From IMG/VR virus record IMGVR_UViG_2974499353_000001, positions 40,721 through 104,720 of that record: 64,000 nt of DNA; one strand, given 5' to 3'. Positions 37,997 to 38,314 of this stretch are shown piece after piece. Within the stretch, counting starts at the first letter, position 1. The number at the start of each line of letters is the position of its first letter. Below the pieces are notes generated by a model that was not told the origin of the DNA, searched no databases, and saw only the letters and a program-made list of their open reading frames with translations. The translations under genes and the position numbers were made by a program. This stretch comes from a virus. Lineage: Duplodnaviria > Heunggongvirae > Uroviricota > Caudoviricetes > Ackermannviridae.

Positions 37997-38314
37997 TTAT
38001 TTGCAGAGAACAACGACGAGTTCAGCTAACTCTCCGAGGGTAGGATCATCTCCATGTTTACCCACCCACTCGTCACTAATTTCTACATCGTACTCTTCTT
38101 CGATTTCCATGACCAGCTCAATCATGTCAAGATCGTCACCACCGAGATCATTCTTAACCCGTAACGGCGCTAAAGCATCGATATTATCATCAATGTTATC
38201 AAACTTGTCCTTGTGATCCCCGTTGCGCCAGGTTTCCATGTTCAGGTTGTCACAAGCGTACTGAGCCAGAACACGCATTACTTCAACATAAGTTGGTTTG
38301 TTTGACATAAGCAT
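37997..38314 (-). CDS. Acyl-carrier-protein-like protein with the phosphopantetheine-attachment Ser replaced by Asp
   Basis: [27 protein letters not shown] versus E. coli AcpP [27 protein letters not shown]. N-terminal extension of about 35 aa. Confidence 0.65.
   Translation of the reverse strand: [105 protein letters not shown]

Follow-up and report, generated by a model that had tools for sequence, protein, structure and literature searches.

An acyl-carrier-protein fold lacking the attachment serine is conserved in Ackermannviridae phages and may act as a non-carrier mimic

The window analyzed here is a 64,000-nucleotide stretch of an Ackermannviridae phage (IMG/VR record IMGVR_UViG_2974499353_000001, positions 40,721 to 104,720), the bases 36000-41000 of which are 100% identical to Salmonella phage S118 (NC_049437.1; Kuttervirus, Ackermannviridae) and 97-99% identical to CBA120, SFP10, GG32 and many further Vi01-like phages. 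Within a block of minus-strand replication and host-interaction genes, away from the structural genes, lies a small gene for an acyl carrier protein (ACP)-like product, and we report that this gene is real, conserved and mis-named, its product being an ACP fold that presumably has no prosthetic group. The original prediction had placed an open reading frame (ORF) of 105 amino acids (aa) on the minus strand at 37997..38314, which is present exactly as described. The corresponding RefSeq entry (YP_009880682.1, "acyl carrier protein", similar to CBA120 orf142) starts at the third codon, an ATG at 38308, and the family alignment agrees with this start, with Met3 being the conserved initiator; a GAGA Shine-Dalgarno-like motif is located ~8 nt 5' of this ATG. 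Residue numbers below are those of the 105-aa form. The gene order around the ACP-like gene is constant and consists of a small ORF, a ~735-aa vWA protein, a GC-rich hairpin with a weak U-tract, the ACP-like gene itself, a terminator hairpin (in most genera), a sigma-70-like promoter and a 78-80-aa ORF (Table 1). Mass spectrometry of a virion preparation of a Vi01-like phage has recovered a single peptide of the ACP-like protein (PMC10892097), which shows that the protein is expressed but little beyond that.

By fold and by Pfam match, the protein is a member of the ACP superfamily, although not a functional AcpP-type carrier, since the defining serine is absent and the NCBIfam cut-offs are not reached. 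Specifically, the match to Pfam PF00550 (PP-binding) scored 30.7 bits against a gathering score of 20.8 (E 3.8e-7; profile positions 26-67), and residues 3-105 aligned with positions 1-108 of the 108-position profile of PHROG 4154, "acyl carrier protein" (moron/AMG/host takeover category), at E 1.8e-56. The best solved relatives found by phmmer against the PDB were the Bacillus subtilis ACP (E 4.7e-8) and Escherichia coli AcpP (E 1.5e-5). An AlphaFold2 model built from a 20-sequence alignment (predicted local distance difference test score, pLDDT, 86.9) had ACP topology, with helix I at residues 9-23, II at 61-75, III at 81-86 and IV at 93-103, and a lengthened, partly helical loop I. In a Foldseek comparison of this model with the PDB, the best 50 matches were all ACPs (probability 0.94-1.00; target-normalized template modeling score mostly 0.6-0.8, maximum 0.82). 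The ACP homology proposed originally therefore holds at a level far above chance, with PF00550 matched above threshold and an ACP fold found by AlphaFold2 and Foldseek. In contrast, all 11 of the 11 NCBIfam ACP models scored below their cut-offs (e.g., TIGR00517 at 37.3 bits against 70.45) and matched helix II/III only (model positions ~28-60). Residues 56-82 are the sole segment strongly identical to bacterial AcpP and the best-conserved stretch of the family. The earlier statement that this peptide matches AcpP almost residue for residue was slightly generous; the quoted peptide is present and its mismatches are mostly conservative, but only 18 of the 27 residues are identical to AcpP 31-57.

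The attachment serine itself is replaced. HMMER and MAFFT alike align Asp61 with Ser36 of the DSL motif, in agreement with the substitution originally reported, and residues 52-79 contain no Ser or Thr, with Ser80 not being conserved across the family. When 47 distinct family sequences were pooled from a search of 5.8 billion proteins, a search of 1.8 billion representatives with the family profile, the IMG/VR loci and a second profile search, the Ser36-equivalent position was Asp in 16 and Glu in 31, and in none was it Ser or any other residue. A neighbor-joining tree requires at least five Asp/Glu interchanges at position 61, and the restriction to these two residues despite such repeated change points to selection for charge. 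Further, although the single-base neighbors of a GAY codon include Asn, His, Tyr, Ala, Gly and Val, Glu is the one replacement that occurs, which likewise argues that the negative charge is selected. As judged from these sequences, the loss of the serine is a fixed trait of the whole family and no one-off mutation. A still more distant member was recognized in Erwinia phage vB_EamM-Bue1 (MG973030.1; positions 6316-6615 of our locus L072), where an uncalled 99-aa ACP-like ORF carrying MDELD sits 3' of the vWA gene and its hairpin. A candidate EF-hand-like metal site in DLGGDDLD was dismissed by inspection because its spacing is unsuitable. While databases already name the gene "acyl carrier protein", we met it in the literature only in gene tables (PMC3220722, PMC10892097), and neither the missing serine nor a function was mentioned in any source that we found.

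The database name, together with the fact that some phages encode canonical ACPs with an intact DSLD, would be in line with the protein still being a carrier, through another residue or through non-canonical chemistry, that serves a biosynthetic pathway of the phage or of the host. We consider this very improbable for several reasons. Known phosphopantetheinyl transferases (PPTases) act on the hydroxyl of a serine, and in the family alignment, conserved Ser or Thr residues are missing from the motif and its surroundings, as is any conserved Ser, Cys or Lys that could plausibly serve as an alternative site. The shortfall against every NCBIfam ACP model, with only positions ~28-60 matched, also counts against a carrier. 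Finally, no carrier pathway was apparent in the phage: the complete 157-kb S118 genome has no annotated PPTase, fatty-acid, polyketide or non-ribosomal peptide enzyme (many of its genes are hypothetical and could include remote homologues), a phmmer search of its six-frame ORFs with E. coli AcpS and B. subtilis Sfp gave no match (the sensitivity of this search is limited), and no acyltransferase, ligase or synthase was found in the phage genome.

The family has kept the part of ACP that faces its partners. Among 17 representatives sharing <80% mutual identity, D60, L62, I65, E66, M69 and E72 (AcpP D35, L37, V40, E41, M44 and E47, respectively) and P91 are fully invariant, and D63, I79 and D81 (AcpP D38, I54 and D56), as well as Y9, V12, W83 and D89, are nearly so. 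Loop I, the termini and several surface positions of helix II/III (the AcpP E48, D51, E53 and P55 equivalents) are variable, with the E48-equivalent position occupied by E, D, S or C. Neutralization of AcpP D35, E41 and E47/48 abolishes modification by E. coli AcpS (bioRxiv 10.1101/2025.01.28.635281), and the D35, E41 and E47 equivalents among these AcpS-recognition residues are invariant in the phage family. Similarly, AcpP M44, V43, L42, F50 and I54 were recovered in a screen for lost SpoT binding (PMC3340395), and the M44 equivalent is invariant. Outside the helix-II segment, the ACP-like protein is the fastest-evolving of its neighborhood, with a mean pairwise divergence of 0.44 vs. 0.13-0.21 for four neighbors, i.e., 2-3 times higher. 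Alleles have also been exchanged: in a Kuttervirus-type mosaic (L013, IMGVR_UViG_2974516482; compared with window positions 30000-47000), the neighboring proteins share 91-98% identity with S118 and the vWA protein 98.5%, while the ACP-like protein shares 62% and has the Glu that is characteristic of other genera. A divergent allele among closely similar neighbors indicates that ACP-like alleles move between lineages by recombination.

Searches with tblastn found the gene in 271 phage records, essentially all of them Ackermannviridae and with hosts that are all Enterobacterales (or records mislabelled otherwise), and the reading frame is intact in ~271. The distant relatives recovered from metagenomes are all in Ackermannviridae-type synteny. 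The lost serine, a divergence faster than that of the neighbors and the undocumented function could all be expected of a decaying, functionless remnant of a captured host acpP; nonetheless, we regard this as hardly credible. That is, every genus of the family is represented among the records with an intact frame, many residues do not vary even where overall identity falls to 33-45%, position 61 is confined to Asp/Glu through repeated change, the ribosome-binding site and the flanking RNA hairpins are conserved, and a peptide of the protein has been observed by mass spectrometry (PMC10892097).

The transcriptional arrangement ties the ACP-like gene to the vWA gene upstream of it. The hairpin between the two genes is kept in 11 of 11 loci (among L004-L021, L065-L069 and L072) with differing stems (GGCGGG/CCCGCC, GCCGGG/CCCGGC, GGGGGC/GCCCCC and others), as scored by single-sequence folds; RNAalifold on a MAFFT alignment with mis-registered stems gave 3 pairs. 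Since the hairpin leaves no space for a promoter, the ACP-like gene appears to be transcribed by read-through from the vWA unit, and the ratio of vWA to ACP-like expression is probably set by the hairpin, acting either as a leaky terminator or on RNA stability. In S118, this unit starts at the sigma-70-like promoter at 40813-40786, a consensus match that suggests transcription by the host polymerase, i.e., expression that would be early or middle. Matches to the T4 late promoter TATAAATA occurred only twice in the window, which is the chance level, and none was near the ACP-like gene. No transcriptome of an Ackermannviridae phage turned up in the literature searched. A further stem-loop was noted in the leader of the 79-aa gene downstream of the TTTACT-N17-TATTAT promoter.

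Table 1. Features of the ACP-like locus, in window positions (record position - 40720 = window position)
Feature	Position	Strand	Remarks
149-aa protein	36171-36620	(-)	Most conserved of the neighborhood
Sigma-70-like promoter TTTACT-N17-TATTAT	37919-37947	(-)	After the terminator; sequence conserved across genera
Terminator-like hairpin AAAUCCCCAAUA...UAUUGGGGAUUU + U-tract	37961..37988	(-)	Directly 3' of the ACP-like stop codon; kept in most genera
ACP-like coding sequence	37997..38308	(-)	103 aa from the conserved Met; longest ORF two codons longer, to 38314
Residues 56-82: DLGGD[D/E]LD motif, helix II ("recognition helix"), start of helix III	38069..38149	(-)	From alignment and conservation
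Asp61 codon GAT (105-aa numbering)	38132..38134	(-)	AcpP Ser36 position; Asp/Glu in all family members
Hairpin GGCGGG GAAA CCCGCC + weak U-tract	38328..38343	(-)	Separates the vWA stop codon from the ribosome-binding site of the ACP-like gene
vWA protein, 738 aa	38352..40568	(-)	Upstream, apparently co-transcribed; N-terminal vWA domain with complete MIDAS
Candidate sigma-70-like promoter TTGGCA-N16-TAATAT	40786..40813	(-)	Consensus match only; 5' of the small ORF/vWA/ACP-like unit
Terminator hairpin	40827-40854	(-)	Precedes the candidate promoter 40786..40813
290-aa protein	40888-41760	(-)	N4 gp49/Sf6 gp66 and RyR domains

This arrangement raises the possibility that a phage complex has the ACP-like protein as its dedicated subunit or adaptor, the vWA protein being the most obvious partner, with the exposed, invariant carboxylate at position 61 completing the metal coordination of the metal-ion-dependent adhesion site (MIDAS) as happens in integrin I-domains. 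The MIDAS sites of vWA and integrin domains take a ligand carboxylate, and the MIDAS motif of the phage protein (D24, S26, S28, T97 and D127) is complete and invariant in 43 homologues. All Ackermannviridae-type loci that we examined have the order of vWA gene, hairpin, ACP-like gene and terminator, and this extends to relatives sharing 33-45% ACP identity and to Erwinia phage Bue1. The two genes are too close for a promoter between them, the number of records with a vWA protein at >=60% identity (270) is similar to that for the ACP-like gene, and conserved residues off the canonical ACP interface (listed below) would fit a vWA or other phage partner. However, the whole region is syntenic in the phage family, which makes the adjacency weak evidence. 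The vWA protein occurs in 504 phage records in total, and the other ~234 records belong to T4-like phages of Klebsiella, Cronobacter, Citrobacter, Enterobacter, Yersinia and Shewanella and to phages of Bacillus and Rhizobium; three of the three such loci examined had no ACP-like gene. In the L013 mosaic, the ACP-like allele was swapped independently of a nearly identical vWA protein, and in a mirror-tree comparison the ACP-like distances correlated with those of the vWA protein at r 0.76 vs. 0.84-0.89 with unrelated neighbors, i.e., there was no specific signal of co-evolution. A vWA partner would also leave the invariant AcpS- and partner-contact residues unexplained. The model of the vWA protein (pLDDT 86.8) shows an N-terminal vWA domain and sandwich resembling ArnB, the Sec23/24 trunk and PDB 4fx5, residues 300-738 had no match among known structures, a PDB sequence search of the protein gave no match, and nothing in the structure comparison tied it to ACP biology. 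Overall, we consider a role as subunit or adaptor of a phage complex unlikely, but it is the main alternative to the hypothesis that we favor.

The remaining neighbors were also inspected. The 149-aa protein, which shares 83-99% identity across genera, has a DGSHR motif that recalls nuclease domains of the ParB/sulfiredoxin type; Pfam gave no match, and its PHROG family, 2859, has no known function. The 290-aa protein is conserved 5' of the vWA unit in the family. In some relatives (L067, positions 2987-5502, and likewise L013, L014 and L019), a Pribosyltran and NAPRTase gene pair is found just 5' of the small-ORF/vWA/ACP-like unit, which we take to resemble the NAD-reconstitution counter-defense pathway (NARP1).

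This gene pair, with its presumed resemblance to counter-defense, would fit a different explanation, under which the ACP-like protein is a generic acidic decoy or anti-defense protein (e.g., a nucleic-acid or polyanion mimic directed against a host immune or DNA-binding protein) and the ACP fold is simply a convenient acidic scaffold. The protein is indeed strongly acidic (isoelectric point 4.1; 26 Asp+Glu vs. 9 Lys+Arg), its gene is the fastest-evolving locally and exchanges alleles between genera, as is common in counter-defense genes, and acidic phage mimics that act on host complexes are known, including, reportedly, one against MukBEF (bioRxiv 10.1101/2024.10.02.616235). A generic polyanion, however, would need no exact AcpP helix-II residues, among them the hydrophobic L37, V40, M44 and I54 equivalents. 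Moreover, E. coli AcpP has an identical isoelectric point, so the acidity is inherited and not a new feature, and no similarity to known anti-defense families was found in PHROG and viral-structure fold searches. Hence, we view a generic decoy as improbable.

We favor instead, with a probability of roughly 40%, the hypothesis that the protein may be a non-carrier ACP mimic, whose recognition helix and fixed negative charge would bind an ACP-recognizing protein, probably a low-copy one of the host. As Asp or Glu always stands in place of the attachment serine, neither the cofactor nor an acyl chain is likely to be carried by the protein, and it probably acts by binding other proteins, not by carrying fatty acids. 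The acidic residues of helix II destabilize ACP; that they are invariant and solvent-exposed after the loss of the prosthetic group is most simply explained if they bind a basic ACP-docking surface. Under this hypothesis, the protein, having retained the four-helix ACP fold and a nearly unchanged acidic helix II, the docking face for ACP partners, would be made from a transcription unit of the host-RNA-polymerase type and would dock through helix II on an ACP-recognizing protein, blocking or modulating that partner during infection. The partner would most plausibly be a low-copy host client that can do without the pantetheine arm, e.g., AcpS, the acyltransferase PlsB or MukB. Apo-ACP is the substrate of AcpS and is bound by it. 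Further, apo-ACP inhibits glycerol-3-phosphate acyltransferase and growth more than holo-ACP does (PMC3896788), and apo- and holo-AcpP are equally effective in stimulating the MukB ATPase (PMC8602292). The charge at position 61 might imitate the phosphate of holo-ACP or might do no more than stabilize the N-terminus of helix II. The absence of a modification, the binding to a host ACP client, the choice of that client and the gain for the phage are all points that we infer.

Several observations weigh against this hypothesis. Asp and Glu are favored in the first turn of helices, and the charge at position 61 may thus have no role in mimicry. Among ACPs at large, no part is better conserved than helix II, whose conservation here may be partly structural. 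Family-specific conserved residues are also located off the canonical ACP interface (K6, Y9, V12, W83, G85, D89 and P91), which suggests an additional or different surface that could serve a phage partner, and indeed the partner may also be phage-encoded. The timing of expression was deduced from consensus promoter matches alone, and the authors of the CBA120 study were unable to define early promoters (PMC3184105). Host AcpP is among the most abundant proteins, at 86-358 x 10^3 copies per cell (PMC8602292), which makes general titration of the fatty acid synthesis (FAS) enzymes implausible and a rare target, bound with higher affinity, likelier. SpoT was reported not to bind apo-ACP (PMC3896788), and so, as a target, it would call for true phosphate mimicry. 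Lastly, binding to a partner is a proposal from sequence. Consequently, the original suggestion of a decoy that titrates host ACP partners survives in part: it is plausible in that the partner-contact residues are kept, but titration of the bulk FAS enzymes is unlikely given the abundance of AcpP, and SpoT is a doubtful target given that it is reported not to bind apo-ACP.

A more specific version of the hypothesis, which we regard as doubtful but intriguing, is that the protein could be a virus-encoded mimic of holo-ACP, in which the Asp/Glu carboxylate takes the place of the phosphate of the phosphopantetheine arm, so that during infection the protein would lock in one state a low-copy host regulator sensing the ACP state, with SpoT (stringent response) or MukBEF (chromosome organization) as candidates, or that it could be a dead-end inhibitor of AcpS or PlsB that stops membrane lipid synthesis. 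Mimicry of a protein cofactor was not described as a phage strategy of host takeover in the literature that we found. If a host ACP client is the target, the protein would represent the first example of a phage imitating a protein cofactor, as well as a natural, evolved inhibitor of an essential, drug-relevant node (AcpS, PlsB, MukBEF or SpoT).

It is important to note that a change of annotation is warranted whichever of these readings holds. The label "acyl carrier protein", attached to hundreds of records, implies an auxiliary metabolic gene, and the protein is probably unable to do what that name implies. The Ackermannviridae (Vi01, CBA120 and relatives) are widely used and studied for the biocontrol of Salmonella, E. 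coli O157, Klebsiella and Dickeya, and their takeover of the host is little understood; in a 2024 review of Ackermannviridae biology, the ACP-like gene is absent and no words beginning with "transcript", "takeover", "carrier" or "anti-defen" occur. Our results indicate that selection is strong on the very surface through which bacterial ACP contacts dozens of partners, and thus provide a clean, testable host-takeover hypothesis in a phage family of applied importance, the mechanism itself still being hypothetical.

Compared with the ACPs of bacterial fatty acid synthesis (E. coli AcpP and B. subtilis AcpA; PF00550, TIGR00517), the phage protein shares the four-helix fold, the helix II/III segment (18/27 residues identical to AcpP), the low isoelectric point (~4.1 in E. 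coli AcpP) and the equivalents of D35, L37, D38, E41, M44, E47, I54 and D56. It differs from them in having Asp or Glu in place of Ser36 in all members, in falling below every NCBIfam ACP cut-off, in carrying ~25 extra residues in loop I, a KPxY motif near the N-terminus and an inserted W-x-G-x-x-G-D-D-P-T ahead of helix IV, and in being encoded by a virulent phage without detected ACP-dependent enzymes. Canonical phage ACPs (phrog_5934; our viral contigs L022-L064) are likewise small, phage-encoded proteins of the ACP fold in the same Pfam family, but they mostly keep the serine of DSLD and are ~75-95 aa long. Among unrelated phages, a few sporadic ACPs lack the serine: L029, L053/L058, L059 and L062 have Asp/Glu in its place, L035 and L061 have Ala, and their contexts include an AEP primase, a deaminase, a cupin/glycosyltransferase and an FkbM methyltransferase with radical-SAM/SPASM and GT61 genes; the gene contexts of L029, L058, L059 and L062 had no vWA gene and no common partner. 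When viral structures were searched by fold, all matches were other phage ACPs, with no characterized phage protein of this fold among them.

Beyond phages, many proteins of 80-180 aa match PP-binding above the Pfam threshold with the serine replaced by Asp or Glu (GADELD, GADDLD; P0079, P0089, P0095, P0102, P0111, P0132, P0137, P0141, P0150 and P0158, and also P0036, P0037, P0052 and P0064), although their prominence in our match list is partly biased by the query profile. A large subgroup of them, bacterial and unrelated to the phage family, has an N-terminal lipoprotein signal (e.g., LTGC, LAGC, LASC) and is thus exported. ACP domains that lack the serine and retain charge may therefore form a wider, unrecognized class.

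In concept, the phage protein also resembles the DNA mimics Ocr and T7 gp5.9, which are small, very acidic early phage proteins occupying a binding site of the host, and a viral DNA mimic has been reported to inhibit MukBEF, itself an AcpP-binding complex (bioRxiv 10.1101/2024.10.02.616235). Those proteins mimic DNA, as opposed to the protein cofactor proposed here, and share neither sequence nor fold kinship with the phage family. Functional precedent for an unmodifiable inhibitor or ligand comes from apo-ACP and the unmodifiable AcpP S36T of E. coli, which have no prosthetic group and still dock on partners; these, however, are laboratory or transient host forms, whereas the phage version is genetically fixed, bears a carboxylate and is built on a diverged viral scaffold. 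The mitochondrial ACP of Plasmodium falciparum is an ACP fold without the serine that is independent of fatty acid synthesis (PMC8547962). It is the nearest concept to the protein described here, i.e., an ACP without the serine that works through protein contacts, and the phage protein has in common with it both the fold and the replaced serine. In the Plasmodium protein, a hydrophobic Phe stands in for the acyl-pantetheine when binding the LYR protein Isd11, and we know of no LYR-type partner in the phage or its host. The replacement in the phage protein is, in contrast, a charged Asp or Glu, and the two cases arose independently.

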